Source of the DNA: Candidatus Methylomirabilis limnetica
GTDB taxonomy: Bacteria > Methylomirabilota > Methylomirabilia > Methylomirabilales > Methylomirabilaceae
DNA: 32,000 bases
NCBI RefSeq assembly: GCF_003044035.1
Contig: NZ_NVQC01000011.1
Coordinates: 29,714 to 61,713 of the forward strand
Direction: 5' to 3'
How positions within the stretch are numbered: position 1 is the stretch's first letter; each line of letters opens with the position of its first letter. The translations under genes were made by a program, and so were the position numbers. The notes under the pieces are model-generated. The model did no database searches. It saw nothing but the letters and a program-made list of their open reading frames with translations, and was not told the origin of the DNA. Positions 10,016 to 31,340 of this stretch are shown here, one piece after another.

Positions 10016-10027
10016 GGAGCAGAGACC

Positions 10028-10273: not shown

Positions 10274-10346
10274 CGATTGGATGTAGACGTTTCGGAAGCC
10301 TATCGACATCCGAAGCGGCTGATTCATACGTTGGGCCGAATAGGGC

Positions 10347-10373: not shown

Positions 10374-10382
10374 ATCACTACT

Positions 10383-10640: not shown

Positions 10641-10948
10641 TTTGGTCCGAGCCTGCGCTTAGCGACCTGGATGCCATCGCCGACTACATCGCATTGGACA
10701 ATTCGGAAGCGGCTAAGATGTTAGTTCGGGACGTATTTCGGCACGTGGGTCAGCTTGCTGATCATCCCAAGAGCGGTTCCAAGCCACAGGAACTAAAGGG
10801 GTGGCGCTACAGACAGATCGTCGAGCCGCCATGCCGGATCTTCTATCGGGAAGAGGGTTCGCGTGTCTATATTCTGCATGCCATGCGAGGCGAACGGTTG
10901 CTTCGACCTTCTGTTGTTGCAACACGCAGCAAGGTGTCAACCAAGTAA
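10628..10948 (+). CDS. type II toxin, RelE/ParE family
   Basis: 106 aa. W.E.AL.DLD.I..YIA..N..AA pattern and C-terminal RIFYREEGSRVYILHAMRGERLL. Confidence 0.85.
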   Translation: MAEVIWSEPALSDLDAIADYIALDNSEAAKMLVRDVFRHVGQLADHPKSGSKPQELKGWRYRQIVEPPCRIFYREEGSRVYILHAMRGERLLRPSVVATRSKVSTK

Positions 10949-11171
10949 AGTCCAACAGCCGGTTCCAGGCGACACTCCTACTCTCATGAGTGTGATCTTG
11001 TCGAGCGCTGCCGCTCGGGTCTGGCCACGCGCTCATTTTCGGCAGACTTCCGTGTCTCCGCTATCACGGCGTATCGCTAATCGCTCTGAGTGTGGCACCA
11101 GCGGAACTCGTCCTGGCCGGACGCTTCAACTTAACGCTTCGCCGGCATGACGTGAAGCCCGACTCACCGCG

Positions 11172-20177: not shown

Positions 20178-20328
20178 ACGACCATCCGTATTTCATTCCA
20201 ATGTCTCCTGTCCACCCTCTATTTCTTCTCCCACTTCTCTTTGAATTATCCGATTAGCGGCGGCCCGATCGCGTAGCGCAACCAACGGCATAGTGTTTGG
20301 GCGGTCCGCTCGACGATCGGAATGGGCG

Positions 20329-20706
20329 CTAATGTGAATACTGTAGCGTGCCTGTGAGTTTTGGTGATAGGAAGGCGTATACGATTACGCCTATAAGAAC
20401 CCCTATACCATCCGCCAGCAAGTCGAGCGGGTCACCAAAACGGGTGCTAGTAAGCGCGCCTTGCATGACCTCAATGATAACTCCATGAGTTATTAAGCCA
20501 AAGAAAACGGGTCGCAATCTTTGCGGAAAAGCAAAACATCCCATGATGGAAAGGATGGAGTAGGCTAAAGCGTGTTGCGCCTTGTCCCAAAACTGAAAAG
20601 CCTTTGGAATGGAAGTACTTGGAATTAAAGCGAGTAATGATACGAGAGCGAGGCAGATACAAAACAGTAGCGGCATGTAACGAAGAATTTTAATCGTTTG
20701 TCTCAT
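20329..20706 (-). CDS. VanZ-like family membrane protein
   Basis: 125 aa from ATG 20706. Four hydrophobic segments, with DKAQHALAYSIL and HGVIIEVMQ...R.GDPLDLLADGIG blocks typical of VanZ-like proteins. The region is visibly AT-richer than its flanks. Confidence 0.65.
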   Translation of the reverse strand: MRQTIKILRYMPLLFCICLALVSLLALIPSTSIPKAFQFWDKAQHALAYSILSIMGCFAFPQRLRPVFFGLITHGVIIEVMQGALTSTRFGDPLDLLADGIGVLIGVIVYAFLSPKLTGTLQYSH

Positions 20707-20920
20707 ATCGGTAAGATCAACACGGTTATTGGAGAAGCACAACCATTGAGCATACTGACCGACATACCACCATCCAAACCTTTGACGGATGCGGCGATTC
20801 TCCTGTCTTTTAATGAGCTTGTCAAGTCCGCACGGCACCGATTGTTAAGGTGGACCCCAAAACAGCGATAGAAAGTTGTCATTGCGAACGAAGTGAAGCA
20901 ATCTCCCATTGTTGCACCGA

Positions 20921-20962
20921 CACAACAGACGCAATGACGCGATCGACGCCATAGACGCAATG
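20921..20962 (+). repeat. ACGC-core tandem array R1 (4 cores)
   Basis: cacaacagACGCaatgACGCgatcgACGCcatagACGCaatgg. Immediately followed by TGGTAGAAT. Confidence 0.85.
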
Positions 20963-20971
20963 GTAGAATAC

Positions 20972-21001
20972 TTGCTTCCTGCGGTGATTCCACGCTATAA
21001 T
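20972..21001 (+). promoter_or_regulatory. candidate sigma70-type promoter of the Fic cassette
   Basis: TTGCTT-18 nt-TATAAT. The -10 is bracketed by the inverted repeat CCTGCGG/CCGCAGG. AGGAG lies 9 nt before ATG 21022. Confidence 0.4.
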
Positions 21002-21021
21002 CTCCGCAGGAGCTGCGTAGA

Positions 21022-22125
21022 ATGTATATCCATGAGCGTAAGGACTGGCCCCGGTTTAACTGGAACCGCGAGCTGTTCGCTGAGCCTCTCGCCGACGTTC
21101 GCCACCGACAGGGTCGGCTGATCGGCCACATGGAAGCCCTCGGATTCAATCTCCGCCAGGAGGCCGTCTTGCAAACCCTCACGTCCGATGTTCTCAAGAG
21201 CAGTGACATCGAGGGCGAGAAGCTGGATGCTGAACAGGTCCGGTCCTCGATTGCGCGCCGCCTCGGTCTGGATATCGGCGCCTCCAAGCCCGCAGACCGC
21301 AATGTCGAGGGCATCGTTGAAATGATGCTCGACGCCACGCGCCATTATGACCAGCCACTCAGCGCCGAAAGGCTCTTTGCGTGGCATGCGTCCCTGTTTC
21401 CCACCGGGCGCACCGGCATGACCAAAATCAGGGCAGGGGCCTGGCGTGACGACAGCACCGGTCCGATGGAGGTCGTCTCTGGCCCGGTTGGGAAGGAGCA
21501 CGTCTATTATCAAGCGCTCCCGGCACCACGGGTCGATGGGGAGATGCGTGCGTTCCTGGAGTGGTTCAATGCCAACGCCGACAGTGATCCGGTCTTGAAA
21601 GCTGGACTGGCCCACCTCTGGTTCGTCACCATCCACCCGTTTGATGACGGCAACGGCCGCATTGCGCGCGCCATCGCCGACATGGCCCTGGCGCGCTCAG
21701 AAAATAGTCCGCAGCGCTTTTACAGCATGTCAGCGCAAATCCGGCAGGAGCGTAACGCGTATTACGACATTCTTGAAGAGACGCATAAGGGGACGATGAA
21801 CATCACGCCCTGGATGGAATGGTTCCTCGGCTGTCTGGGCCGCGCCATCGATGGTTCACAAACCACTCTGGCCGCAGTCCTCGCCAAGGCGCGCGTCTGG
21901 GACGCGCTAGCCGGTGTTGCGATCAACGACCGGCAACGCCTTGTGCTCAACCGTCTCCTTGATGGCTTCGAGGGTAAGCTCACGACATCGAAATATGCGA
22001 AGCTCGCCAAGTGTTCCCAGGACACCGCCCTCCGTGACATTCTGCCGCTCGTCGAGCGCGGTATCCTTGTCCGCAACCCGAAAGGCGGGCGGAGCACGAG
22101 CTATGCGCTCGCTCCGCTACGATAG
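21022..22125 (+). CDS. Fic family protein (DUF4172 N-terminal domain, Fic core, C-terminal winged-helix)
   Basis: 367 aa. Fic active-site motif HPFDDGNGRIAR (HPFx[D/E]GNGRxxR). An N-terminal inhibitory-helix-like motif SSDIEG ([S/T]xxxE[G/N]) lies upstream of the core. Confidence 0.9.
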   Translation: MYIHERKDWPRFNWNRELFAEPLADVRHRQGRLIGHMEALGFNLRQEAVLQTLTSDVLKSSDIEGEKLDAEQVRSSIARRLGLDIGASKPADRNVEGIVEMMLDATRHYDQPLSAERLFAWHASLFPTGRTGMTKIRAGAWRDDSTGPMEVVSGPVGKEHVYYQALPAPRVDGEMRAFLEWFNANADSDPVLKAGLAHLWFVTIHPFDDGNGRIARAIADMALARSENSPQRFYSMSAQIRQERNAYYDILEETHKGTMNITPWMEWFLGCLGRAIDGSQTTLAAVLAKARVWDALAGVAINDRQRLVLNRLLDGFEGKLTTSKYAKLAKCSQDTALRDILPLVERGILVRNPKGGRSTSYALAPLR

Positions 22126-22156
22126 AGCGATGCGTGCAACCGACCATCTTGGGTCT

Positions 22157-22281
22157 ATTCCGTCTTTTTCGTCACTGACCACCCGACCAAATAGACTAGA
22201 TAGACCAAGCAGACGCAATCAGCGCCGTACGCCGCACGCTGCACGCAACAGACTCAATGACGCAACAGACGCGATAGACGC
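22157..22281 (+). repeat. ACGC-core tandem array R2 with leader box (7 exact cores plus degenerate units)
   Basis: Leader ATTCCGTCTTTTTCGTCACTGACC (22157-22180), then degenerate units (ACCA/ACTA), then cagACGCaatcagcgccgtACGCcgcACGCtgcACGCaacagactcaatgACGCaacagACGCgatagACGC. Confidence 0.85.
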
Positions 22282-22323
22282 ATGAAAGTTGTCATTCTCG
22301 CCGGTGGTGTCGGTACCCGCATC
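22282..22323 (+). pseudogene. N-terminal relic of a sugar-phosphate nucleotidyltransferase
   Basis: ATG directly abuts array R2. MKVVILAGGVGTRI equals the canonical N-terminal G-loop of RmlA/RfbF-type enzymes. After codon 14 the ORF loses all resemblance to the family. Confidence 0.35.
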
Positions 22324-22368
22324 TTCATGCCTGGGAGGGATAGCGCCATATACCTGTTCCCCCATTTC

Positions 22369-22397
22369 TTGACATTTATATCCATAGGGCTCACAAT
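22369..22397 (+). promoter_or_regulatory. candidate promoter of the RHH-MazF cassette
   Basis: Consensus -35 TTGACA, a 17-nt spacer, then CACAAT. AGAGG lies 7 nt before ATG 22431. Confidence 0.4.
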
Positions 22398-22430
22398 CTT
22401 ACCAAACGTCATACTTAATAGAGGTCTCCT

Positions 22431-22712
22431 ATGCCTACCGTTACAGATCGGTCTCCAAAATCCAAGATCACGGTCACGCTGAGTCCGGACGTAGTCCGTC
22501 AACTGGATGCCCTCCTTGACCTCCCGGGGAACCGCTCCCGAAGCCTCCTGGTTGAAGAGGCCATTCGCCGGTGGCTTCAGGAGCACGCTCAGAAGCAGAT
22601 TGAACGCCAGGTTGAGGATTATTACCTTTCCCTCTCCAAGGCCGAGCGCAAAGAAAATGAAGCGTGGTCCAAAACCTCCGCTCGCGCGGCCAAATACATC
22701 TGGGATAAATAG
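22431..22712 (+). CDS. ribbon-helix-helix (CopG-like) type II antitoxin
   Basis: 93 aa. A KITVTLSPDVVRQLDALL beta-strand/helix start, immediately upstream of a MazF/PemK toxin gene. Confidence 0.75.
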   Translation: MPTVTDRSPKSKITVTLSPDVVRQLDALLDLPGNRSRSLLVEEAIRRWLQEHAQKQIERQVEDYYLSLSKAERKENEAWSKTSARAAKYIWDK

Positions 22713-22717
22713 CCACC

Positions 22718-23065
22718 ATGCCATATCCTGGCCGAGGCGAGATTTACATGGTCAAACTCCCATGGCATCCTTCCGACACTAAAAATCGGCCCGCTCTTGT
22801 TGTGTCAATGGACGTTCGCAATCGGCTGGCCAGCGATGTCATTGTGGTGCCTGTAACCTCGACCCTTCGGCCCGCGCCCACCCATGTCGAACTGCCTGCC
22901 GGAGAGGGAGGCCTCAAGCAAACCTCCATGGCCAAGTGCGAGCAGATCACCACGCTGGATAAATCGTTTCTCCTTCGCGGCCCCTTTGCCGGAACGGTGC
23001 GCCCATCGCTCATGCTTGAAATCGAAAAAGCTATCCAACGGGCCATCGGCATTCCGATCGTTTAA
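22718..23065 (+). CDS. mazF: type II toxin, MazF/PemK family endoribonuclease
   Basis: 115 aa. RGEIYMVKL......K.RPALVVS.D..N....DVIVVPVTS...P..THVEL, then ..KCEQITTLDK. Confidence 0.85.
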   Translation: MPYPGRGEIYMVKLPWHPSDTKNRPALVVSMDVRNRLASDVIVVPVTSTLRPAPTHVELPAGEGGLKQTSMAKCEQITTLDKSFLLRGPFAGTVRPSLMLEIEKAIQRAIGIPIV

Positions 23066-23122
23066 ATAGCGTGTGGCACGCCTTCCCCCGTAGCATCACG
23101 CTTCGCGTACCTCCGCACCCCC

Positions 23123-23148
23123 CAGACGCAATCGACGCGATGACGCAA
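23123..23148 (+). repeat. ACGC-core tandem array R3 (3 cores)
   Basis: cagACGCaatcgACGCgatgACGCaag. Confidence 0.7.
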
Positions 23149-23290
23149 GCCGTGCGGTGATGGCGGCCTGATCAATGGCGGGTTCTTAGTACTCTCCCCG
23201 CGCGATGCCGCGCATCCGCTGCTCGATGGTGATTTTCGTGGGACCGAAACGTGAAACCCGCCGATAGCCCTGAAAGTCTTCTTGCTTTGG

Positions 23291-23311
23291 TTATACCAGT
23301 ACAGGTATAAT
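23291..23311 (+). promoter_or_regulatory. operator palindrome overlapping a consensus -10 (HigBA-like cassette)
   Basis: TTATACC-agtaca-GGTATAA is a perfect 7-bp inverted repeat. TATAAT at 23306-23311 lies 6 nt before ATG 23318. Confidence 0.5.
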
Positions 23312-23317
23312 AAGCAC

Positions 23318-23528
23318 ATGCCATTCCTAAGAAAAACCGATCGAATGGGTGGGGAGCAGCAAAAAGGATTTGATGGCGCTTCCTGCCGACGTGCGGAAGT
23401 TCTTCGGCCATGCCCTGGACTTCGCACAGCGCGGCGATCAGCATGACGCGGCGAAGGTGCTCAAAGGTTTCGGCGGTACCGGCGTACTTGAGGTGGCCGA
23501 AAACGCTTGCAAAGGAGCGACGAAATGA
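23318..23528 (+). pseudogene. HigB-like toxin relic (RelE superfamily, phage Gp49/DUF891 type), frameshifted and C-terminally truncated
   Basis: Frame from 23337: PIEWVGSSKKDLMALPADVRKFFGHALDFAQRGDQHDAAKVLKGFGGTGVLEVAEN, then ACKGATK*. This matches the N-terminal half of this toxin family. The ATG (23318) is in another frame and is joined by removing one A of the A5 run at 23332-23336. The C-terminal half of the family is absent. The stop overlaps the antitoxin start (ATGA). Confidence 0.65.
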
Positions 23529-23860
23529 AAAAAAGGCTCATTAATGGTATCGAGGCGGAAAGCAGCTCCGGCAATGTGTTTGCTGACCTGGGCCTGCCGA
23601 ATGCCGACAAGCTCAAGATCAAGTCCGGCTTGGTGATCAAAATCACCCAGGCCGTGCGCAAGCTGGGCTTGACTCAAGAAGAAGCCGCCCGTCGCATGGG
23701 GATCACCCAGCCGAAAGTGTCCGGCATGATGCGCGGCGACTTTTCCAACTTATCCGAGCGCAAGCTGATGGACTGCCTGAACCGGCTTGGCTACGACATC
23801 GAAATCAAGGTGAAGCCGGCTGCGGAGCCGGTCGGCCACCTCGTGCTGGCTGTCGCTTGA
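23525..23860 (+). CDS. XRE-family HTH antitoxin (HigA-like partner of Gp49-type toxins)
   Basis: 111 aa from ATG 23525 (AAGGAG 8 nt upstream). SSGNVFADLGL...LTQEEAARRMGITQPKVSGMMRG.F..LSERKLMDCLNRLGYDIEIKVKP. Confidence 0.85.
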   Translation: MKKRLINGIEAESSSGNVFADLGLPNADKLKIKSGLVIKITQAVRKLGLTQEEAARRMGITQPKVSGMMRGDFSNLSERKLMDCLNRLGYDIEIKVKPAAEPVGHLVLAVA

Positions 23861-23962
23861 CCGGATTCAGGAAGCACCTCGCCCCGCTGCGTCACCGCCC
23901 GCAGTCATTGGCAATCGCCGTCGGCTGACTTACGTACTTGTTACATTTGTCCTTGTTGTCAG

Positions 23963-23991
23963 GTCTTTCTCGTCACAGACCAAACAGACGT
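23963..23991 (+). repeat. vestigial array: leader-like box plus two degenerate units
   Basis: GTCTTTCTCGTCACAGACC matches the R2 leader at 17/19 positions. It is followed by aaacagACGT. Confidence 0.5.
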
Positions 23992-24147
23992 TTGAGCGGT
24001 TGGTTGACGCGGAGCTAGCGGGCAGCGTCTTCGCAATGATGGATGCTAAGGTCCACCACGGGTTAGCCCGATCCATTTGTTCAGATGCCGGACAACTTAT
24101 TAACGCTCTCAAAATACTAACTTTACGTGATCGAAGAACCCTTCTGA

Positions 24148-24194
24148 CCTCCCTTTGCCAAAGGGAGGATTTACCCCTCTTTGGAAAAGAGGGG
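24148..24194. repeat. pair of GC palindromes (CCTCCCTTTGcCAAAGGGAGG; CCCCTCTTtggaaAAGAGGGG)
   Basis: Same style as 18197-18240. They lie in a 0.55-kb stretch with no convincing coding potential. Confidence 0.6.
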
Positions 24195-24461
24195 CGAGGG
24201 GAGATTTTAAGATTGCTGTCCAAATCCGGTCTTTCAAAAATCCTATGTTGGACAAGTATGATTGGGATGTGTTATTGCGAGTGTTACGCTGAGATTGTCG
24301 CGCACCCTTCGGGTACTCGCAATGACGTACACATGAACGGATTGGGCCGTCAATGCCTATTTGTGGGGTGGATGAGGTGCTGGCGGTTGGGGGGCGTGAT
24401 AAGCTGAAGAGAAATGTTCAGCTTCAAGGGACGAGTTACGAAGTCGTCATGGGGTAGAAAC

Positions 24462-24518
24462 CACTTGCAACGCAACTCGGCGCAGCTAATTGGCAATATC
24501 GTCACTGAGGTGAGATAC
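24462..24518 (+). pseudogene. 57-nt relic of an ABC-exporter membrane domain
   Basis: HLQRNSAQLIGNIVTEVRY versus HLPRNSAQLIRNIIAEVGM of the ORF at 27914-27970. About 45/57 nt are identical by hand alignment. Confidence 0.5.
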
Positions 24519-24654
24519 TAGACTTTCTCCGGGATCATCCTTGGCGTGTTGCTGTTCACTGAACCCTCGACTCGGTGACGCTATAGACACCACCCCTCGT
24601 TTGGCCTAAAGTGTTGGCACCAGTGGGGCACGCTGCGGGAGACCTGAAACCGGC

Positions 24655-25004
24655 ATGGTAGGCCACATGGACCAAGTAGTGCGGACATTTGCAACGGAGT
24701 TGAGAGGGGCTGGGGCCTCGTGTGCGGCAGATCCTGCTCTTTGGCTCCAGGGCCGAGGGGACGCTGGGGAAGGGTCTGATGATGACATGCTGGTGGTCAT
24801 CGATCAGCGCACGCCCGAGCCGTACTGGACGTTGAGCGGGGGCTCATGGATCGCTATGGGGTCTTGGTATCGACGATCCTTCGCAGCGAGGAGGAATGGC
24901 AACACAGTCAGGCTTTCGCCTTGGCTCGTAATATCATACGGGAAGGCGTACCTTGTGAAGGACGAGCTCGACCAACCAGACGCAATAACACAATAACGCC
25001 ATAG
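24655..25004 (+). pseudogene. nucleotidyltransferase (MNT-type antitoxin-like) with at least three frameshifts
   Basis: Family-like segments lie in three frames: MDQVVRTFATELRG (frame of 24655), GPRVRQILLFGSRA (24713-24754), RGDAGEGSDDDMLVVIDQRTPE (from 24754) and VLDVERGLMDRYGVLVSTILRSEEEWQHSQAFALARNIIREGV (from 24822). Confidence 0.65.
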
Positions 25005-25044
25005 ACGCAATAAACGCTATGAACGCAATGAACGCCATAGACCG
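24977..25044 (+). repeat. ACGC-core tandem array R4 (6 cores)
   Basis: cagACGCaataacacaataACGCcatagACGCaataaACGCtatgaACGCaatgaACGCcatagaccgg. Contains the first codons of the next CDS. Confidence 0.85.
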
Positions 25045-25432
25045 GACACTCAAGCAGGCTCTCCTGGCTGCTATCTGCATTCAGCCGGGTATCGGGCTGG
25101 TCATTATGTTCGGTTCGCTGGTGGCCGGCAAGGGGCGTATGGAAAGCGATCTGGACCTGGCGGTAGACGCGGGGCGCCGCCTGACGGCCAGCGAGAAAAT
25201 AGCGCTGATCTCCGAGTTGGCGAGAAGAACCGGCCGGCCGATTGACCTGGTGGATATCCACACCGTTGGCGAGCCTCTTCTGGGGCAGATTCTTCGGCAC
25301 GGAAAAAGGTTGCTGGGCAGCGATACGCACTACGCCAACCTGATCCGCAGGCACCTCTTCGATCAAGCGGACTACCTGCCGTACCGCAACAGAATCCTCG
25401 CTGAAAGGAGGCAGGCATGGATCGGGAGGTGA
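25019..25432 (+). CDS. mntA: nucleotidyltransferase antitoxin MntA (MNT domain)
   Basis: 137 aa. The FGSLVAGKGRMESDLDLAV motif (GS-x-G...D-x-D) and a 16-nt overlap with the downstream HEPN gene. The start (ATG 25019 or 25028) lies inside array R4 with no SD, so it is uncertain. Confidence 0.8.
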   Translation: MNAMNAIDRTLKQALLAAICIQPGIGLVIMFGSLVAGKGRMESDLDLAVDAGRRLTASEKIALISELARRTGRPIDLVDIHTVGEPLLGQILRHGKRLLGSDTHYANLIRRHLFDQADYLPYRNRILAERRQAWIGR

Positions 25433-25833
25433 TCGAGCACAAGCTCGAATCCCTGCGCCGATGTCTTCAGCGCGTCGCGGACAAATGCCCGCCCAACCCA
25501 GAAATGTTGGAGCGAGACCCCGATCTTCAAGATATTATCGCGCTCAACCTGACCCGTGCCGTGCAATTGTGCGTGGACATCGCCGCGCACCTTATTGCCG
25601 GCATGGAAGTGCCACCACCGGATACGATGGGCCAAACCTTCGATGCCTTGGCCAAGGCTGGCGTGATCCATGAGAACCTGGCAATGCAACTGAAGCAAGC
25701 AGTGGGCTTTCGTAATGTCGCCGTGCACAACTACGAGGAAATCAACTGGACTATTGTCCACACCATTGCCCGCCATCACCTTGGCAATTTCACAGAATTC
25801 GCTAGGGTTATTGTCTCCAGATTGGCAAGATGA
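25417..25833 (+). CDS. hepT: HEPN-domain toxin HepT (DUF86)
   Basis: 138 aa. The R-x4-H motif is in GFRNVAVHNY, and the helical DUF86 pattern is present. Confidence 0.85.
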   Translation: MDREVIEHKLESLRRCLQRVADKCPPNPEMLERDPDLQDIIALNLTRAVQLCVDIAAHLIAGMEVPPPDTMGQTFDALAKAGVIHENLAMQLKQAVGFRNVAVHNYEEINWTIVHTIARHHLGNFTEFARVIVSRLAR

Positions 25834-25835
25834 CC

Positions 25836-25956
25836 ATTCCGTCTATCTCGGCACAGCCCAAACCAACGCAATCAACGCGATGACGCAACAGACGCAATAA
25901 ACGCCATAGACGTAATGACGCAATAACGCAATGACGCAATCAACGCTATAGACGCC
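25836..25956 (+). repeat. ACGC-core tandem array R5 with leader box (10 cores)
   Basis: Leader ATTCCGTCTATCTCGGCACAGCCC (19/24 match to the R2 leader), then ccaACGCaatcaACGCgatgACGCaacagACGCaataaACGCcatagacgtaatgACGCaataACGCaatgACGCaatcaACGCtatagACGCc. Confidence 0.9.
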
Positions 25957-25973
25957 TTCCAGCCTTCAACTTC

Positions 25974-26378
25974 CTAAGAATGGTGCAAGTCGTCCAGGAA
26001 ACCAGCGAGCGTGAGTATGCGGATCTCTTCATGGCAGACGAGCGAAAGAAGATGGCGGTCACCGGAGACGATGATTTTGGCCTCAGCCAGCAGGGCACAT
26101 TCGAGAATCCGATTGTCCGGCTCATCCGTGAGAATATGAAGGTGAGGCTGGGTCTTCAGGACCGTAGCCGTCTTGCTGATGGACGTGAGGAGTTGCTCGA
26201 CCTTCTCATCCGTCCAGTCGAATTTAGTTCGGAGGATGTTGGCGGTTTCGGTGAGAATGAAGAAAGAAGTGAAGAGGACGAATCTTCCCCGCACGGCATG
26301 CAGATAGGCCTCTTCCGCATTGCCGCCAGGAATGGCAAAGGCCGAGATGAAGATATTCGTATCGAAGACGACCCGCAC
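25974..26378 (-). CDS. PIN-domain toxin (TIGR00305-like putative TA toxin)
   Basis: 134 aa. VVFDTNIFISA..., ...TDEPDNRILECA, IVSGDRHLL. The GTG start lies 2 nt after the upstream RHH stop. Confidence 0.85.
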   Translation of the reverse strand: MRVVFDTNIFISAFAIPGGNAEEAYLHAVRGRFVLFTSFFILTETANILRTKFDWTDEKVEQLLTSISKTATVLKTQPHLHILTDEPDNRILECALLAEAKIIVSGDRHLLSLVCHEEIRILTLAGFLDDLHHS

Positions 26379-26380
26379 GT

Positions 26381-26626
26381 TCAGCGACCCTGAAGGACCA
26401 GGGCTTCGACGTCAGCTTCGGTCAGGATACCTTTCTTTCTGGCCTGCCGGACGCCGTACCGCTGAAGCTCAAAGAACTCCAACTCCATGCGACGCTGCTC
26501 ATAGGCCTGGAACATATCGCGGAAAAGCTGACTCTTGTTCTTGGCCTCGGCTTTGGCTAATCCGCCGAACCGCCGCGCGAGGTCATGAGGAAGCGACACT
26601 GTTAAGGCTACCCGCTTGTGCTCCAC
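26381..26626 (-). CDS. ribbon-helix-helix (CopG-like) antitoxin
   Basis: 81 aa from GTG 26626 (AAGGAGG 8 nt upstream). RVALTVSLPHDLARRF beta-strand/helix start. The longer track ORF would begin inside the predicted -35. Confidence 0.75.
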   Translation of the reverse strand: MEHKRVALTVSLPHDLARRFGGLAKAEAKNKSQLFRDMFQAYEQRRMELEFFELQRYGVRQARKKGILTEADVEALVLQGR

Positions 26627-26654
26627 ATTACTACCCTCCTTTCTGTATGACAAA

Positions 26655-26683
26655 ATTATACCTGGCATCGCACTGACCGTCAA
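26655..26683 (-). promoter_or_regulatory. sigma70-type promoter of the RHH-PIN operon
   Basis: On the minus strand: TTGACG-17 nt-TATAAT. The 10-mer TCATACAGAA occurs between the -10 and the RBS (26641-26650) and again at 26754-26763, a possible operator pair. Confidence 0.6.
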
Positions 26684-26770
26684 TGCTGAGCATCGTGAGA
26701 GGGGAGTGAATCTTATAAGCTGTATTCATTCAGTGGACCGTGTCAACCCCATTTTCTGTATGAATCGGGA

Positions 26771-26910
26771 CACGACGACCGCCATCGACCCAACCGACGT
26801 AATCAACGCGATGATGCAACGACGTAATGAACGCTATAAACGCCGCACGCAATGACGCCATCAACGCCATAAACGCCGCACGCAATAAACGCCATCGACG
26901 CAACAGACGC
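26771..26910 (+). repeat. ACGC-core tandem array R6 (11 exact cores plus degenerate units; longest array)
   Basis: ...aatcaACGCgatgatgcaacgacgtaatgaACGCtataaACGCcgcACGCaatgACGCcatcaACGCcataaACGCcgcACGCaataaACGCcatcgACGCaacagACGC. Confidence 0.9.
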
Positions 26911-26911
26911 G

Positions 26912-26920
26912 TGGTATAGT
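26912..26920 (+). promoter_or_regulatory. extended -10 (TGGTATAGT) abutting array R6
   Basis: A TGnTATAGT element starts 2 nt after the last repeat unit, 40 nt upstream of the HicB ATG, with an AAGGAGGAAGGAA RBS region. Compare TGGTAGAAT right after R1. Confidence 0.4.
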
Positions 26921-26959
26921 CCTCATGGAAGATGGATAGAGTACTCAAGGAGGAAGGAA

Positions 26960-27190
26960 ATGGAACGGGTTGTGAGAATCCATATTGAGAAGCTGCCAGA
27001 GGGTGTGTACCTCGCCACCTCCGGCGCCGTACCAGGTCTGGTCGCTCAAGGGCGAACTGTTGCAGAAACATTGGAAATCGCCAGGGATGTTGCTCGAAGG
27101 CTACTGGAAGCCCGGGCCGAACGCCAGGAGGTGAACTCGCTTCAGCCAGCCGAAGAGGTTGTGGAATTCCCATTGGTCGTCAATATCTGA
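26960..27190 (+). CDS. hicB: HicB-family antitoxin (short form)
   Basis: 76 aa. IHIEKLPEGVYLATSGAVPGLVAQGRTVAETLEIARDVARRLLE is typical of the HicB N-terminal domain. Confidence 0.75.
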   Translation: MERVVRIHIEKLPEGVYLATSGAVPGLVAQGRTVAETLEIARDVARRLLEARAERQEVNSLQPAEEVVEFPLVVNI

Positions 27191-27193
27191 GCC

Positions 27194-27366
27194 ATGGGAC
27201 GGTTGGCTGGGTTTCGATATCGTGAGGTCATCAAGCGACTGCAAAGACTTGGGTTTGCATTCGCTACACGACGGTTCCCAATCACCCAGGGGACATACCG
27301 GTAGGAACACTGCGCGCAATCCTGAAACAAGCTGGGATTGATCCGGAAGACTTTCTCAACTCATGA
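27194..27366 (+). pseudogene. hicA: HicA toxin relic (internal deletion plus frame change)
   Basis: The N-terminal frame gives MGRLAGFRYREVIKRLQRLGFAF... and stops at 27302-27304. The C-terminal frame gives ..TTVPNHPGDIPVGTLRAILKQAGIDPEDFLNS*. The total is 173 nt (not a multiple of 3), and the segment that normally carries the conserved G-S-H is missing. Confidence 0.65.
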
Positions 27367-27445
27367 AGTTTCTTGACACTCCAATCTCTCACCATAAGCT
27401 TATCGCGTCTTGATCTTCCATGTGAGGCCGATTCGCGTTTCCGTC

Positions 27446-27530
27446 CGACCCAATCAACGCAATAAACGCCGCACGCCATCGACGCAATCGACGCAATGAC
27501 GCAACAGACGCAATGAACGCAACAACCGCC
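27446..27530 (+). repeat. ACGC-core tandem array R7 (8 cores)
   Basis: gacccaatcaACGCaataaACGCcgcACGCcatcgACGCaatcgACGCaatgACGCaacagACGCaatgaACGCaacaaccgcc. The last units supply ATG 27513. Confidence 0.9.
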
Positions 27531-28426
27531 CGGAAAATCTGGGACCTGCTCACCTCCGCCGAACGACGCAGTGCGGTGGTGTTGCTGGGCCTGATGTGCG
27601 TCGGCATGGTGCAGACGCAACAGACGCCATGACGCTACTCGGTGCGGGTCTGATGATCCCGGCGACTGCACTGCTCACACAGCGTGATGTTGCACGCACC
27701 TATCCGGCGCTTCACCCGGCCCTGCACGCCCTCGGCAACCCCAGCGAGCAGACCCTTGTCATCGGTGGCATGTTGGCGCTGGTTGGAGTATATCTCATCA
27801 AGACACTGTTGCTGGCTGTACTCGCCTGGCGGCAGACGCGTTTTGCCTTTGGTGTGCAGGCGCAACTGTCGCAGCGCCTATTCACCGTCTATCTGCGCCA
27901 GCCGTATACGTTTCACTTGCCACGCAACTCGGCGCAATTGATTCGAAATATCATCGCCGAGGTGGGCATGTTCACGTTCAGCGGAATCCATCCGGGCATC
28001 ACGTTGCTTGCTGAATCACTGGTATTGCTCGGCCTGTGCAGCCTGCTCCTCGCCGTCGAGCCGCTGGGTGCGCTCATTGTGGTGAGTGTGTTGGGTGCGG
28101 CCGCCTGGGGGTTCCATCGTCTCACCAGCGGGCGCATCGCGCGCTGGGGCAAGGCGGTGCGCCAGCATCATGACGGCGTGCGCCTTCAGCACCTGCAACA
28201 TGGCCTGGGCGGCGCCAAGGATGTGACACTGCTCGGAAGGGAAATCGACTTTCTCGACCAATACTGCGTGTACAATGCCCAGTCTGCCCGCGCCTGGCAG
28301 TTGCACACCACTCTGCAACAATTCCCGCGCTTGTGGCTGGAACTGCTTGCCGTCAGTGGCCTCGCCATACCGGTGATCAGCATGCTGGCGCGGGACCTGG
28401 CGGCGCGGCTACTTCTGGAGATCTAG
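27513..28426 (+). pseudogene. ABC exporter (type-1 transmembrane domain) gene, frameshifted by a repeat patch and lacking the ATPase domain
   Basis: MNATTARKIWDLLTSAERRSAVVLLGLMCVGMV (frame of 27513) continues as LLGAGLMIPATALL... and about 260 further aa of ABC-TMD-like sequence in the frame of 27596. There is no Walker A or signature motif before the stop at 28426, which abuts array R8. Confidence 0.7.
27610..27635 (+). repeat. ACGC-core patch R7b (3 cores) inside the ABC-exporter reading frame
   Basis: gcagACGCaacagACGCcatgACGCt. Removing 26 nt (or any length equal to 2 mod 3) rejoins the two halves of the frame. Confidence 0.75.
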
Positions 28427-28452
28427 CAGCGGAGTCGCAACGTCACGTCACC

Positions 28453-28510
28453 TAGACGCAACAGACGCAATAGACGCAACGAACGCCATCAACGCCGCAC
28501 GCAACGAACA
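28453..28510 (+). repeat. ACGC-core tandem array R8 (6 cores)
   Basis: tagACGCaacagACGCaatagACGCaacgaACGCcatcaACGCcgcACGCaacgaaca. Confidence 0.88.
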
Positions 28511-28527
28511 CTGGAGCGAATGAACTC

Positions 28528-28689
28528 ATGAAGGTGAGGTTGCACCCCCATGCGGTAGAGCGACTGCGAGAGAGGGTAACGACGGAGGAAGAAGTCAAGA
28601 GGGCCGTGGAACACGGTGAACGCTTTGCGGCAAAGCATGGACGAACGGGATTCCGACGAAACTTCCGAGGTTATACTGAAGTCCGTTGA
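28528..28689 (+). pseudogene. DUF4258-family (toxin-like) gene, N-terminal part, interrupted by an IS element
   Basis: MKVRLHPHAVERLRERVTTEEEVKRAVEHGERFAAKHGRTGFRRNF... matches the family pattern (..HA..R..eRgit.eev...fRrnF). The remainder is found at 30056-30199. Confidence 0.65.
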
Positions 28690-28697
28690 AATTTGAA

Positions 28698-30055
28698 GAG
28701 TGGCTCCCTCCGTGGAATACTCCACGGTAGCAATAACGAAAGGAGCCACAGATGAGAAGAGACACGAGGCAACGGAAGCACGCCATGGTTGGATTGAGGG
28801 CGATATCGGGGGAACAGCAGTTGTTGGGGGTCCTGACCCGTGTGATTCACTCGGGCAAGCAGGCGCTCGACGCGGTCATGCTGGAGATGGGACGCCTGGT
28901 CGCCGAGAGCGTCATGCTGATCGAGCGAGAGGAGCTCGCAGGACCCGGGCTCCTATCCGACGGACCCGAATCTCCAGAAGTGGGCGCACGAGGAGCGGTC
29001 GATCTTTATCGGCGACCAGAAGGTCAGGGTGCACCGCCCGCGACTCCGACATGTGGTTCGTGGGGAAGTGCCCATGCAGTCGTACGCACACCTGCACTCC
29101 CCAGGGCAGTTCTCCGAGGAGTTGTTGGAGAAAATCCTGCGAGGGGTCTCGGCGCGGAAATACGAGGAGACCGTCCTCGACGCGGCGCACGCATTCGGCG
29201 TGTCGCCGTCGTCAATCTCCCAGAAGATGGTGACGCTGACGGCCCAGAAACTGAAGGCGTTCCAAGAGCGGTCCCTGGCGGAGTTCACGCCGTTCGCGAT
29301 CTTCTTGGACACGATCCACCGGGGCGGCGAGGCATTTCTTGTCGCGCTGGGCGTGGACGTGAGCGGCCAGAAGATGGCCCTGGGATTTTGGCAGGGCTCC
29401 TTTCGAGAATCACGAGATCGGCGTCGCGCTGTTCAACGATCTGGAGCGCCGCGGTCTCTCGCTCTCCAAACGGATCCTGTTCGTGACCGACGGTGGCAGC
29501 GGCCTGCTCAAGGCGCTGCGGGAACGGTTCGGCAAGAAGCTGGTGCATCAACGCTGTGCGATTCATAAGAGCCGGAACCTCCAGCGACACTTGGCCAAGC
29601 GGTACCGCAAAGAGGCCCATCAGCGGCTCAAGACCGCGCTGGAGCAGACGCGCCACGCCGATGCCAGGCAGATGCTGCTGGAGCTGGAGGCGTGGCTGCG
29701 AGCCAAGAACGAGTCGGCGGCGGATTCGCTCCTGGAAGCCTTCGAGGAGTTGTTGACGCTGCATCGACTGAAGGTGCCGGCGCTGCTGCGCAAGACGCTG
29801 ATGTCAACCAACCCGATCGAGAGCATGTTCTCGCTGGTCCGGCACAGCGAGCGGAACATCAAACGCACACGAGGAAGCACGATGCTCCAGCGTTGGCTGG
29901 GGACGGTGTTGCTGTACTGCGAGAAGCAGCTCAAGCGCGTGAAAGGCTTTGCGGGTATTGCTCAGGTCGTCGCGACCATCGAGTACGAGCAAGCGGAGCA
30001 GCAGTCCGCTCTGACGAAGACGGCGGCGTGAGAAAACCATGGGAGCCGCTCAGAT
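28698..30055 (+). mobile_element. IS256-family insertion sequence (about 1.36 kb), transposase frameshifted
   Basis: Terminal inverted repeat GAGTGGCTCCC (28698-28708) versus GGGAGCCGCTC (30041-30051), 10/11 complementary. Flanked by AATTTGAA (28690-28697) and AATTTCAA (30056-30063) as a likely 8-bp target duplication. The exact ends are uncertain by a few nt. Confidence 0.7.
28752..30031 (+). pseudogene. IS256-family (Mutator-like) transposase with two frameshifts
   Basis: Three consecutive frames carry the family sequence: ...VMLIEREELAG | PGSYPTDPNLQKWAHEERSIFIGDQKVRVHRPRLR...ISQKMV...FLDTIHRGGEAFLVALGVDVSGQKMALGFWQGS | ENHEIGVALFNDLERRGL..ILFVTDGGSGL..QRCAIHKSRN...STNPIESMF. The shifts lie at the G-run 28947-28949 and the T-run 29401-29403. 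Confidence 0.8.
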
Positions 30056-30199
30056 AATTTCAACGAACTTATTGACAACCTCAAACTTCCGTATGGCGGC
30101 ATGTTGAATGATAAGATGTACTCAACAAAGCAAGTGGAAGCGTACGCCGTGGAGGAAGACGGATGGCTCGTCCTGACGGTCATCGTCAAGTTCTTCTAA
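30056..30199 (+). pseudogene. DUF4258-family gene, C-terminal part
   Basis: NFNELIDNLKLPYGGMLNDKMYSTKQVEAYAVEEDGWLVLTVIVKFF* matches the family C-terminus (..Y.tKQV....veE.....VvTVy..yf). Confidence 0.6.
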
Positions 30200-30212
30200 G
30201 ATCGGAGGAGAC

Positions 30213-30443
30213 ATGAAACTCAACTATGATCCGAAGCACAACATCGCGTACCTGAGAATTCACGAGAAGATCGAACAAGTCACGACGATCAAGCTCAGTG
30301 ATGAAATGAACATCGATATCGCTCCAGATGGAACAGTCTATGGCATTGAGTTCCTGAATGCCAATGAGCAACTGACCGAGGACCGGGGTGCTCTCGTCGT
30401 CGAGTTGGAGAGCAAGAGACACGAGATCAAGCTGGTGGCATGA
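30213..30443 (+). CDS. DUF2283 domain protein (usual partner of DUF4258)
   Basis: 76 aa. MKLNYDPKHNIAYLRI...IDIAPDGTVYGIEFLNA. GGAGGAG RBS. Confidence 0.8.
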   Translation: MKLNYDPKHNIAYLRIHEKIEQVTTIKLSDEMNIDIAPDGTVYGIEFLNANEQLTEDRGALVVELESKRHEIKLVA

Positions 30444-30859
30444 AGTTCGTCGAGACCCGCCGTAAAGGCACCTGCGTCATCGAGCTGGAATCCGTCGAAG
30501 ACGAACGCAGTCTACTGAGCGAAGAGCTTTTTGCGGAGGTTCAAAGAAATGTCGAAGCACTGGGGCAAGGGCATGGGCTTGACGTGGCCGTCACCGATCC
30601 CATCGTCCGCTCAACCGCCATTCAACTCCCCTTATCCCGCCATCGCGAACAAAACGGCCCTGATCATCTCAGGCCTGGCCCCTCCGCACGCCATAAACGC
30701 TGCACGCCGCACGCAATCGACGCCATCAACGCTATGGACGCAACAGACGCCATGAACGCAATAGTCTCGCTCGTCTCGCGAGTCCCGCAGCCCCCATCAA
30801 CGCCATCGACGCCGCACGCAATCAACGCGATGACGCAATCGACGCAACAGACGCAATGA
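30440..30859 (+). CDS. hypothetical ORF; only the first ~80 codons are non-repeat sequence, the rest reads through arrays R9/R10
   Basis: ATGA overlap with the DUF2283 stop. No family recognised. The C-terminal portion (..HAIDAINAMDATDAMNAI..) is simply the translated repeat, so the true product, if any, is unclear. Confidence 0.25.
   Translation: MKFVETRRKGTCVIELESVEDERSLLSEELFAEVQRNVEALGQGHGLDVAVTDPIVRSTAIQLPLSRHREQNGPDHLRPGPSARHKRCTPHAIDAINAMDATDAMNAIVSLVSRVPQPPSTPSTPHAINAMTQSTQQTQ
30685..30764 (+). repeat. ACGC-core tandem array R9 (9 cores)
   Basis: cgcACGCcataaACGCtgcACGCcgcACGCaatcgACGCcatcaACGCtatggACGCaacagACGCcatgaACGCaatag. Confidence 0.9.
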
Positions 30860-30907
30860 CGCCATGGACGCAATCGGCCGAACAGACCAAATAGATCAAA
30901 CAGACCC
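30795..30907 (+). repeat. ACGC-core tandem array R10 (10 cores plus degenerate tail)
   Basis: catcaACGCcatcgACGCcgcACGCaatcaACGCgatgACGCaatcgACGCaacagACGCaatgACGCcatggACGCaatcggccgaacagACCAaatagATCAaacagACCC. Confidence 0.9.
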
Positions 30908-31003
30908 TAAGGTCCACTGGACATACCTTCTGCTTTGGCCTAAAGTGGACACAGAGCGAGCGCAAACAGCCCAAGCCCGAACTTGCGACCGAGAGGTAGA
31001 GCC

Positions 31004-31243
31004 ATGAAGACCCTGACAATCCGGACGACCATCGGCGCCAACCACCAGTTGACCATCCCTCTGCCGGAGGATTTCCCATCCGGTCCGACCGAAGTGGTCG
31101 TAATTTTGAACCCATTGGCAGAGCACCTCGATCTCAAAGCCCGTGGATGGACTGAAAGCGACGCCGCCGAGACGCGAGCGCGCCTGAAATCATTTGAGGC
31201 GGACTGGGAGGCCCTTGGGATGGAAGCATACGATGCCCTGTAA
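31004..31243 (+). CDS. putative antitoxin (partner of MazF/PemK-like toxin)
   Basis: 79 aa from ATG 31004 (GAGAGG 7 nt upstream). MKTLTIRTTIGANHQLTIPLPEDFP..TEVVVIL plus a C-terminal ...AAETRARLKSFEADWEALGMEAYDAL tail of the kind I recall for partners of MazF-like toxins. 11-nt overlap with the toxin stub. Confidence 0.55.
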   Translation: MKTLTIRTTIGANHQLTIPLPEDFPSGPTEVVVILNPLAEHLDLKARGWTESDAAETRARLKSFEADWEALGMEAYDAL

Positions 31244-31340
31244 TCGGGGGGACGTCGTGCTCGTGCTGTACCCACATGCCGACCTCCGGACCGCGAAGAA
31301 GCGCCCTGCGCTGGTCGTGCAATTGATTTCGCTAGAGTAA
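31233..31340 (+). pseudogene. MazF/PemK-like toxin, N-terminal 30-aa stub truncated by IS21-family insertion
   Basis: MPCNRGDVVLVLYPHADLRTAKKRPALVVQ follows the family pattern (RGDVvLv.fP......K.RPALVVq). After about 31322 the sequence changes to IS-end DNA and stops at 31338-31340. Confidence 0.65.

Follow-up and report, generated by a model that had tools for sequence, protein, structure and literature searches.

The 32-kb window, that is, the whole stretch of DNA that was analysed, comes from a Methylomirabilis-like bacterium (phylum NC10) and contains an island of ~10 kb in which arrays of short tandem repeats alternate with toxin-antitoxin (TA) modules and gene relics. A regular-expression search of both strands for at least three ACGC cores spaced 7-9 nt apart yielded 13 runs that merge into 11 arrays; all 13 lie on the + strand between positions 20929 and 30871, and none was found on the - strand or in positions 1-20900. 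Tandem Repeats Finder likewise reported period 7-9 arrays at every position given by an earlier note on this DNA, which had described 11 co-oriented arrays and an array-free first 20.9 kb. Both descriptions were confirmed, while its hand count of 77 cores was corrected to 76 within the 11 intervals, which contain no GCGT. Each repeat consists of ACGC-N-A-Y followed by 1-2 nt, or of ACGC-YGC, with periods of 7, 8 and 9 nt, and Tandem Repeats Finder also detected higher-order periods of 17, 26, 33 and 35 nt inside the arrays. The two-unit motif ACGCNAYNNACGCNAY occurs 32 times, always on the + strand of the island, compared with 0.04 occurrences expected from dinucleotide-preserving shuffles, and the ratio of ACGC to GCGT is 133:45 in 20.9-32 kb versus 122:116 in the first 20.9 kb. 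Since the same island was found in assemblies of at least eight different samples, an assembly artefact was ruled out as the origin of the arrays.

All features described here lie on the + strand unless indicated otherwise. Array 1 (20921-20962, 4 cores) precedes the Fic start codon (21022) by 60 nt, and a TTGCTT-18-TATAAT promoter-like site can be read from the sequence between the array and this ATG. Array 2 (22189-22281, 7 cores) has a degenerate GACCAAATA-type head, and its final GACGC directly adjoins the ATG at 22282. The array thereby leads a relic gene start of 13 codons (22282-22320), whose translation, MKVVILAGGVGTR, has a motif that would mark it as the putative start of a sugar-nucleotidyltransferase-like gene. 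The relic is followed by an RHH-MazF module, for which a promoter scan indicated a promoter-like site of its own at 22369-22397, and array 3 (23123-23148, 3 cores) separates MazF from a HigB fragment (Gp49/HigB in Pfam). Two vestiges had been proposed further downstream. The first, originally placed at 23963-23991, is real, as positions 23950-23991 align with an array of locus L164, matching its 5′ flank plus its AGACCAAAC-type head; the array head is thus present in the window and the array body missing. The second (24578-24591) is a weak candidate comprising a single GACGCTATAGAC unit, which by itself does not exceed chance.

Array 4 (24977-25044, 6 cores) holds the MntA start codons at 25019 and 25028, leaving no room for a Shine-Dalgarno sequence before them, and the MntA-HepT module (25028-25833; Polbeta and HepT in Pfam) travels with this 5′ array. 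The 3′ end of array 5 (25863-25956, 10 cores, 26-nt higher-order period) and the stop codon of a minus-strand PIN gene are 18 nt apart, and array 6 (26771-26910, 11 cores, 33-nt higher-order period), the sense RNA of which forms less structure than shuffles do (z +2.4), lies 50 nt upstream of a HicB-like ORF. Array 7 (27446-27530, 8 cores) provides the ATG at 27513 of an ABC-exporter N-terminus; homologues of this array precede the ABC exporter genes in L164, L165, L167 and L183. Array R7b (27610-27635, 3 cores), which the earlier note had singled out as the only array not at a module boundary, indeed lies within the ABC gene. There, however, it splits the gene into two ORFs, ending ORF1 (27513-27632) and starting ORF2 (27629-28426) with an ATGA stop/start overlap, and its junction of ggtgcag with ACGC recurs in L145, L165 and L188. 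Array 8 (28453-28510, 6 cores) follows the truncated ABC ORF and is located 18 nt before the ATG of a DUF4258 fragment, and array 9 (30685-30764, 9 cores) falls within the 3′ portion of a predicted ORF of 139 aa. Array 10 (30795-30907, 9 cores, degenerate AGACCAAAT tail) is located upstream of an antitoxin/MazF* pair and is preceded by a conserved spacer (aatagtctcgc...cccgcag..., 30765-30794). By blastn, the spacer has counterparts in L165, L167 and L183, where it lies 5′ of ABC-gene arrays, and is also present in L145; elsewhere it thus stands before ABC-gene arrays, here before the antitoxin/MazF array. The island extends past an IS21 insertion, as L131 contains two further arrays after an intact MazF.

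Most of the module assignments made earlier were supported by Pfam, namely DUF4172 with Fic, RHH_1 with PemK, the Gp49/HigB fragment with HTH_37, Polbeta with HepT, PIN_3 with RHH_1, DUF2283 and Transposase_mut. The DUF4258 fragment gave a weak hit, the ABC_membrane match is below the curated cut-off but is backed by a 601-aa homologue in L165, and neither HicB/HicA* nor the MNT relic gave a significant Pfam hit. The location of the arrays at module boundaries was likewise corroborated. If recombination between arrays has acted as proposed below, the island would be a patchwork of TA modules and gene relics in which nearly every seam carries an array. It occupies a variable hotspot adjoining an MFS gene, where L249 contains a type I restriction-modification system and AbiV. 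Three arrays of the window provide or adjoin a start codon. In addition, the promoter scan of the window placed promoter-like sites of TA modules downstream of arrays, which is compatible with insulation.

The length of the arrays varies between strains. Among near-identical strains, every multi-base indel comprises whole repeat units and lies inside an array: L131 has one 9-nt unit fewer in array 8 (-9 nt at 28454-28462), and L134 has one extra 9-nt unit in array 7 (+9 nt at 27477). L134 also shows a 17-nt indel at 27615-27636 and is devoid of R7b, at the place of which lies a divergent recombination tract. Such gain and loss of units, together with multi-unit duplications, fits replication slippage or unequal exchange.

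In comparisons with relatives, sequence homology was found to end at arrays. Twelve of 29 homology end-points are located at most 20 nt from an array, versus 12.5% expected (p = 1e-4, with the whole island as a lenient null). The array together with MntA-HepT is 94% identical to L145 over window positions 24978-25847, and both flanks are unrelated, with divergence setting in at the array's 5′ edge and ~15 nt past the HepT stop codon; at the place matching array 4, L145 carries a different array. Likewise, the 5′ fragment of the ABC gene, bounded by two arrays, is found in three settings: before the rest of the gene (window, L145 and L188), before a full 601-aa gene (L165), and before a nucleotidyltransferase start (L223), the last joining homologues of window positions 22214-22323 and 27457-27664. 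Moreover, homology with L167 and L214 stops inside array 8. Judged by these alignments, the arrays probably mark places at which gene modules have been exchanged.

Alignment ends would tend to fall in hypervariable intergenic arrays even without recombination. The independent mosaic events documented are a few only, and arrays of 26-140 nt with heterogeneous units are poor RecA substrates.

Regarding the distribution of the arrays, none was present in ~90 kb of sampled backbone and orthologous DNA of the source organism and its relatives, the sample from which the genome-wide distribution in the source organism was assessed. No array occurs in L004, L005 or L006, which represent the same organism or strain variants, nor in the relatives' orthologous loci (L249, L250 and L251). 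TA or defence modules without arrays occur at 9.5-10.9 kb of the window, in L249 and in L251. A search for the unit elsewhere revealed heterogeneous ACGC-N-A-Y arrays in 11 MAG loci labelled Nitrospirota and in 69 of the 106 metagenome loci; a single borderline non-coding heterogeneous array was observed among 103 viral hits. On Nitrospirota-type or unassigned metagenome contigs, arrays precede the genes for Obg, Lgt, TrmFO, PALP (a PLP enzyme), radical-SAM proteins and RmuC, and the family also precedes epimerase, AsnB-GT (glycan synthesis) and ABC-exporter genes, with some arrays beside TA genes too. Thus, the unit does exist in other genomes and metagenomes, but it is not restricted to TA loci, and a specific tie to TA genes is not supported. 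The family, for which we found no published description, is apparently lineage-restricted, comprising NC10 and Nitrospirota genomes (L195 was assigned to Nitrospirota by Lgt similarity), and L159, L062 and L011 contain other 7-9-nt repeat families.

Across these loci, the ACGC-N-A-Y core is kept from ~35% to 63% GC, and the 3′ ends of arrays coincide with ORF boundaries in 46 of 108 cases versus 11 of 108 for the 5′ ends, 22 of the 3′ ends lying at the stop codon of a convergent gene and 24 at a co-oriented start. Divergent array pairs fold into long hairpins spanning the intergenic region (L195, L175, L181 and L203), the partners being mirror images, unit by unit, and close relatives are without arrays at orthologous sites. 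Passive slippage leaves all four features unexplained: the kept core, the far more frequent contact of 3′ ends with ORF boundaries, the mirror-image pairs and the missing arrays in close relatives.

Our preferred explanation, to which we attach an about even chance, is that the arrays constitute a slippage-prone repeat family, similar to the cyanobacterial STRR tracts, that acts as recombination seams. Being dispersed, co-oriented and mutually similar, the tracts would therefore provide patches for homologous or microhomology-mediated recombination, which may delete, duplicate and re-join the modules between them, and individual arrays would gain and lose units by replication slippage or unequal exchange. 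The arrays occupy untranslated DNA, their 3′ ends near ORF boundaries, and can travel with the downstream gene; they would represent seams and fellow-travellers of genes rather than sites of a dedicated cassette-capture machine. Some factor may recognise or regenerate the core, as its conservation over two phyla and a wide range of GC contents would suggest.

It is conceivable, though unlikely, that the arrays function at the RNA level as 5′ leaders or intercistronic spacers. The unstructured sense transcript, rich in A and C and containing stop codons, would separate translation of the downstream ORF from that of upstream genes and allow initiation on the downstream ORF without a Shine-Dalgarno sequence, often at an ATG provided by the array. 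In line with this notion, genes with a Pfam match from residues 1-10, such as those for AsnB (MCGIAG), TrmFO, epimerase, Obg, Lgt, Memo and a NusG-like protein, have their true start codon within an array or 0-4 nt past its end, as do MntA, ABC ORF1, ABC ORF2 with its ATGA overlap and the nucleotidyltransferase relic in the window. Furthermore, an array travels with MntA-HepT, in five of six cases a sense array folds more poorly than shuffles (z +1.05 to +2.4), the spaces between co-directional ORFs are taken up by arrays in L153 and L159, and in L195 the array pair separates a conserved promoter-like site of lgt from the ATG. However, the RNA-level function leaves unexplained that convergent stop codons are about as common at the 3′ ends as co-oriented starts, and the depletion of Shine-Dalgarno-like sequences in array-led genes is not significant (5/14 versus 103/190, p = 0.27). 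In addition, the promoter-like sites of Fic, RHH-MazF and RHH-PIN are located downstream of or away from the window arrays, and stop codons in the sense arrays bias the start positions.

Cooperative binding of a lineage-specific factor, for example a ribbon-helix-helix repressor or a nucleoid protein, to iteron- or operator-like DNA arrays, by which neighbouring genes would be regulated or silenced, appears more doubtful still. The invariant core amid varying positions in two phyla, the variable copy number, the direct as well as inverted arrangements and the proximity to gene starts would fit such a function. The omega repressor heptad arrays and the tandem 8-bp MetJ boxes have a similar layout, and together with ParR iterons they share contiguous 7-9-bp boxes with the arrays described here. 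The latter, however, far exceed those boxes in length (up to 16 units), and their mixed periods of 7, 8 and 9 nt destroy helical phasing. Moreover, the neighbouring genes are functionally unrelated, the same genes in close relatives are free of arrays, and no candidate DNA-binding protein was found adjoining the arrays nor is a cognate protein known.

A dedicated integron-like system, in which an enzyme inserts and excises gene cassettes at the arrays, is highly improbable: the compact and mostly co-oriented modules rich in TA genes, the start codons very near the preceding array, the single inverted cassette (PIN-RHH), the synteny breaks at arrays and the strain-variable hotspot next to the MFS gene, with other content in L249, do resemble integron cassettes, but arrays precede core genes in Nitrospirota-type contigs, the defence/TA modules of L249 and L251 do without them, and the array stands 5′ of the shared MntA-HepT module, whereas attC travels on the 3′ side of its cassette. 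Nor did we detect IntI or any other tyrosine or serine recombinase, either in the window or in those parts of the ~60-kb contig that were read, and the ORFs scanned with Pfam include neither an integrase nor a cas gene, in agreement with the earlier note. Its statement that the arrays are neither palindromic nor CRISPR-like also holds, as they contain no inverted repeats of at least 14 nt and no attC-like imperfect palindromes; they match no Rfam family, and no tRNA was found.

With REP/BIME elements the arrays share an intergenic, dispersed location and, in the divergent pairs, stable hairpins. The window arrays are however unstructured and of single orientation, consist of 7-9-nt tandem units rather than palindromes of about 35 nt, and no RAYT transposase was seen. 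Contingency-locus repeats of phase-variable Neisseria and Haemophilus genes are similar in their unit-number polymorphism between strains, in their position in 5′ regions or even first codons, and in unit lengths not divisible by 3, which can switch reading frames. In contrast to these, the units are heterogeneous here and slippage should therefore be slower, arrays also occur after stop codons and beside housekeeping genes, and no ON/OFF alleles were observed among the strains compared.

The closest analogue is the cyanobacterial STRR tract, a short tandemly repeated repetitive heptamer reportedly described by Mazel et al. in 1990; the analogy drawn in the earlier note is thus apt. Both consist of short head-to-tail units (7-9 nt), are lineage-restricted, dispersed over many non-coding sites and strand-asymmetric, have no established function, and may occur as several unit families per genome. 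In contrast to STRR, the arrays have an ACGC core followed by a variable spacer, mix periods of 7, 8 and 9 nt within one array, reside in NC10 and Nitrospirota hosts, adjoin ORF boundaries and can provide start codons, form mirror-image hairpin pairs in Nitrospirota-type contigs and, in the source genome, are clustered in one island.

Tandem Repeats Finder detected repeats with a period of 7-9 nucleotides at every position of the window for which the earlier note had named an array of head-to-tail units with an ACGC core, all of them within the approximately 10-kb toxin-antitoxin (TA) island (20921-30907). In several of these arrays, higher-order periods of 17, 26, 33, and 35 nucleotides were found in addition. 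A search for three or more ACGC cores at intervals of 7-9 nucleotides yielded 13 runs between positions 20929 and 30871, all on the plus strand. In line with the note, this search revealed no array in the first 20.9 kb, and the minus strand was likewise free of runs. The eleven intervals (11 arrays in 10 kb of the window) contain 76 ACGC, compared with the 77 cores counted by hand, and no GCGT. For the two-unit motif ACGCNAYNNACGCNAY, 32 occurrences were counted, compared with 0.04 expected. The units are heterogeneous and comprise ACGCAACAG (eight copies), ACGCCGC (seven), and ACGCAATG (five), besides others; the ACGC core, position 6 (A), and position 7 (a pyrimidine) are invariant, resulting in the form ACGC-N-A-Y-N(1-2), and three to five bases vary within each 7-9-nucleotide unit. 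Nearly all ACGC arrays are non-coding, and their sense strand consists of 33% A, 34% C, 24% G, and 8.5% T. Further roles that might be considered for the arrays are footprints of IS target-site duplication, the type IIS site GACGC (HgaI), polar signals resembling Chi or KOPS, Rho rut sites (although YC dimers are few), and decoys for MazF cleavage. A preferred terminal unit was not apparent, as ATAGACGC accounts for about 15% of the last and about 12% of the internal units, which is no real difference. Nor do decayed units extend the arrays on the 5′-side, given that the composition of both flanks returns to background within 18 nucleotides.

The likeness to the cyanobacterial short tandemly repeated repetitive (STRR) sequences holds. 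STRR sequences are tandem units of about 7 nucleotides, placed head-to-tail at many dispersed non-coding sites per genome, and the same organization is seen for the arrays in the window and in the metagenome contig L195. However, the ACGC unit differs from the named units (STRR1, CCCCAGT, etc.), and the host is Methylomirabilis-like and not a cyanobacterium. Integron attC sites are imperfect inverted repeats (R''-L''...L'-R') of about 55-140 nucleotides at the 3′-end of a cassette, whereas inverted repeats of 14 or more nucleotides within 200 nucleotides are absent across 20800-31400. Moreover, unlike in integron cassettes, the array is found 5′ of the MntA-HepT module that the window shares with another locus. 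With respect to IntI/attI, no integrase was found among the window ORFs searched with Pfam or among the precomputed Pfam matches of the 60-kb contig, where the sole transposases are IS256- and IS21-like. CRISPR arrays contain repeats of about 23-50 nucleotides and unique spacers of similar length, usually with cas genes nearby, whereas the units studied here comprise 7-9 nucleotides and the window ORFs revealed no cas domain (Pfam). In contrast to REP/BIME elements, the palindromic units of which (about 20-40 nucleotides) form a stem-loop, the window arrays lack self-complementarity, and the hairpins formed by related divergent pairs in Nitrospirota-type contigs are built from tandem 9-mers. 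The note's exclusion of these three classes is thus upheld. Phase-variable contingency repeats are defined by changes in unit number that turn a reading frame or promoter on or off from one cell or strain to the next. The ACGC arrays are polymorphic in unit number and contain start codons; the variants observed leave the frame of intact genes unaltered. No match to Rfam 15 at the gathering threshold and no tRNA were found in the window, and the full-text literature searched, a limited collection and therefore no proof of novelty, contains no description of such repeats.

Within the approximately 90 kb of DNA sampled from this lineage, arrays occur exclusively in the island. The 30 kb upstream on the same contig and the strain variants L005 and L006 contain none, and arrays are absent from the orthologous loci around the MFS transporter gene in two relatives (L249/L250 and L251). 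At the position of the island, L249/L250 (94% identity) harbor a type I restriction-modification system, Fic, and AbiV, and L251 (83% identity) harbors an RHH-PemK pair, in either case without arrays. The island was found in assemblies of at least eight different samples, and the short-read contigs L002 and L003, which carry it, start about 45 nucleotides upstream of the first array, consistent with assembly breaking at repeats. Transfer of the island out of a Nitrospirota genome rich in arrays is not supported by its tetranucleotide profile, which correlates at 0.86 and 0.92 with two Methylomirabilis-like loci versus 0.81-0.85 with three Nitrospirota loci; the GC content is 56.6% in the island versus 58.9% in the backbone. 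The site beside the MFS transporter gene (window 20200-21000 versus L249 1-8052) is a variable hotspot, where a HEPN_AbiV gene and a type I restriction-modification system with Fic replace the TA island in L249. A second small variable insertion, likewise without ACGC arrays, was observed at 7903-11172 (versus L249 16829-19515), where a MetE-like gene and two TA pairs, DUF4160/DUF2442 and Phd/ParE, located between Der and an HI0933-like gene, are missing from L249.

The first 20.9 kb encode housekeeping functions (PheA, DAHP synthase, HflX, Der, ABC-F, and others) and two TA pairs at 9.5-10.9 kb that lack arrays; PheA and the MFS transporter share 83-89% identity with proteins that bear the name Candidatus Methylomirabilis or NC10. 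The window is therefore assigned to a Methylomirabilis-like organism, and an assignment to Nitrospira, as its gene content and matches labeled Nitrospirae had suggested, is rejected. For the island, Pfam analysis supported the modules named in the note as far as Fic, RHH-PemK, a truncated Gp49/HigB with HTH_37, Polbeta(MntA)-HepT, PIN_3-RHH on the minus strand, and DUF2283 are concerned, whereas DUF4258 and ABC_membrane scored below the curated cut-offs. The island also encodes an IS256-type transposase.

The note had further described an association of the arrays with TA modules. Specificity for TA genes was not borne out, as arrays of the same family adjoin core genes (Obg, Lgt, TrmFO) in other genomes. 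Among MAGs labeled Nitrospirota, a four-unit pattern applied to one genome per species revealed at least 11 loci with heterogeneous non-coding arrays, including the AT-rich versions ACGCTATAA and ACGCAACAA; taxon labels were taken from MAG record titles and protein names. Most of the non-Nitrospirota matches, among those listed, are homogeneous 9-nucleotide coding repeats inside long ORFs. A more specific pattern yielded 106 loci in JGI metagenomes, 69 of them with heterogeneous arrays and 15 with three or more arrays. In L195, 14 arrays are found in 8.3 kb; its Lgt is 79-80% identical to those of Candidatus Nitrospira bockiana and a Nitrospirota MAG, which assigns the contig to the Nitrospirota by similarity. 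Arrays end a few bases from the starts of genes for Obg, a PLP enzyme, an AsnB-glycosyltransferase, an epimerase, an FkbM methyltransferase, a full-length ABC exporter, TrmFO, a radical-SAM protein, Lgt, FecR, Memo, RmuC, a NusG-like protein, and MNT antitoxins. The distribution is patchy: the array pair upstream of lgt in L195 is absent from relatives with protein identities of 86%, 80%, and 72%. L253 and L254 contain one GACGCAACA unit 10 nucleotides before the lgt ATG, which may represent the seed of an array. Of the 103 matches in viral contigs, essentially all are repeats within coding sequence, and a single array is borderline non-coding; the arrays are not a phage feature.

Other families of 7-9-nucleotide repeats (GTCAGANN, AGAACGY, GGGTTTATC, and CATGCTC) were observed beside ACGC arrays (L159 1800-5800; L062 5560-5720; L011 7560-7620), and genomes with several such families appear to be generally permissive for short intergenic tandem repeats. 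On three metagenome contigs (L195, at 424-589 and 2102-2137; L155; L175), a conserved element (...GAGCTCGCCGAAGTC[T/A]G) immediately precedes several arrays on their 5′-side, so that some arrays may belong to a larger dispersed element.

To relate the arrays to ORFs, we used a simple codon-usage caller built from long ORFs of these loci, which recovers the known genes of the window including the minus-strand PIN gene. A gene boundary lies within 40 nucleotides of the 3′-end in 46 of 108 arrays (24 co-oriented starts and 22 stops of convergent genes), and within 40 nucleotides of the 5′-end in 11 of 108 (three divergent starts and eight ends of co-oriented upstream genes); the stop-codon cases are unaffected by bias in start calling. 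Neighboring arrays are arranged divergently in 19 pairs, convergently in three, and in tandem in 14, and the reverse-complement core GCGTCT occurs in 38 of 109 5′-flanks versus four of 109 3′-flanks. Divergent pairs form long in-register hairpins (z -3.0 to -8.2). The window arrays have a single orientation, and folding of the sense strand is, if anything, weaker than that of shuffled sequences.

Three arrays of the window touch start codons directly: array 2 terminates at the ATG that opens a nucleotidyltransferase-like relic of 13 codons, array 4 includes the MntA start, and array 7 provides the ATG for the N-terminus of the ABC exporter. The arrays might act as an RNA leader or translation element, a reading that stays live. 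Shine-Dalgarno motifs were found for 5 of 14 array-led genes versus 103 of 190 (p = 0.27), a test underpowered for depletion. Promoter-like sites of TA genes lie downstream of arrays, such as that of RHH-MazF at 22369-22397; the promoter-like site of RHH-PIN is located at 26683-26655 on the minus strand. Also live is the reading that the arrays could be bound by a protein, for which no candidate cognate DNA-binding protein of the iteron or operator class was identified. A leaderless sigma-70 promoter within the arrays is not supported upon inspection, since the hexamer at -12 to -7 of the array-abutted ATGs is unlike TATAAT and shifts with the length of the gap.

Among near-identical strains, the multi-base indels over approximately 10 kb are all unit-sized (-9, +9, and 17 nucleotides) and located inside arrays, which verifies that array length is strain-polymorphic. 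The small array R7b (27610-27635) divides the ABC gene into ORFs of 39 and 265 amino acids that overlap by ATGA. Strain locus L134 lacks R7b and shows a local SNP cluster at this site, which marks a recombination tract from an intact allele. Given that the gene-array junction of R7b is common to L145, L165, and L188, the array is old. Thus, a recent insertion of R7b in the window is rejected, and R7b was removed in L134. Dense SNP clusters at 26265-26289, 27613-27754, and 28053-28271 in the otherwise 99-100% identical strains L134, L137, L138, and L131 point to short tracts acquired from diverged alleles by recombination.

At larger distance, the window shares the array and the MntA-HepT module with L145 at 94% identity, where homology extends from the 5′-edge of the array to about 15 nucleotides past the HepT stop codon; the flanks are unrelated, and the arrays are not alignable unit by unit. 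The first 100 nucleotides of the ABC gene, bounded by two arrays, were found in three arrangements (window, L145, L188, L165, and L223), and a spacer (30765-30794) that elsewhere lies 5′ of ABC-gene arrays here precedes the array of the antitoxin/MazF pair. Overall, 12 of 29 homology end-points fall within 20 nucleotides of an array (p = 1e-4), against a null that is lenient, given the hypervariability and intergenic location of the arrays. At 23950-23991, a vestige consists of the head of an array, the body of which is missing.

Taken together, these data best support an STRR-like, slippage-prone repeat family, the dispersed co-oriented tracts of which serve as recombination seams within a flexible island. 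A dedicated cassette system is not shown, as there is neither a recombinase nor a palindromic site, the array lies 5′ of the gene, and core genes are flanked as well. Several features, namely the conserved core, the polarity of arrays relative to ORF ends, the start codons that arrays supply, and the mirror-image pairs, argue against passive slippage as the sole process. It is conceivable, if rather improbable in our estimation, that the arrays constitute a functional element marking ORF boundaries in NC10 and Nitrospirota, either as a Shine-Dalgarno-free leader or as the target of a sequence-specific factor. In the former case, the leader would move with its gene, and crossovers between arrays would re-join genes, resulting in module shuffling without an integrase; in the latter, the factor would extend the array in a polar manner up to ORF ends. 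Such a boundary element would explain the conserved core and the polarity of the 3′-end to start and stop codons, and likewise the mirror-image hairpin pairs and array-supplied start codons, and either version would be new.

To our knowledge, no function of short tandem intergenic repeats of the STRR kind has gained acceptance since their description in 1990. The STRR-like ACGC family represents a second, independent case, in two phyla of environmental importance, those of nitrite-dependent methane oxidizers and nitrite oxidizers. It offers several unusually clear handles for study, namely a conserved core of 4+2 bases, polarity to ORF ends, repeat-supplied start codons, hairpin-forming mirror pairs, length polymorphism measurable between co-occurring strains, and module swaps documented at the repeats. 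In addition, the ACGC repeats mislead gene callers on start sites and could act as strain markers in enrichment cultures.

Several minor observations concern the annotation of the island. An IS256-family element (Transposase_mut, 28690-30060) interrupts the DUF4258 toxin gene; the transposase of this element is divided between two overlapping ORFs (28752-29486 and 29483-30031). The MazF toxin is truncated at about 31323 by an IS21-like element (31323-32000). In L131, an intact PemK toxin of 76 amino acids (9671-10013) is followed by two more ACGC arrays (10085-10122 and 10330-10366) and, beyond PemK, by different insertion sequences (rve, DDE_3). The PIN gene is encoded on the minus strand at 25974-26378 (PIN_3, E = 3.6e-15), and several public metagenome assemblies call a plus-strand shadow ORF (25980-26393) instead. 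Finally, a non-coding 0.8-kb stretch (23861-24654) contains two adjacent short G/C-rich hairpins at 24150-24215 (ccctttgccaaagggagg and cccctctttggaaaagagggg), and a similar ccccttta...aaaaggg hairpin is located upstream of the MntA array in L145.
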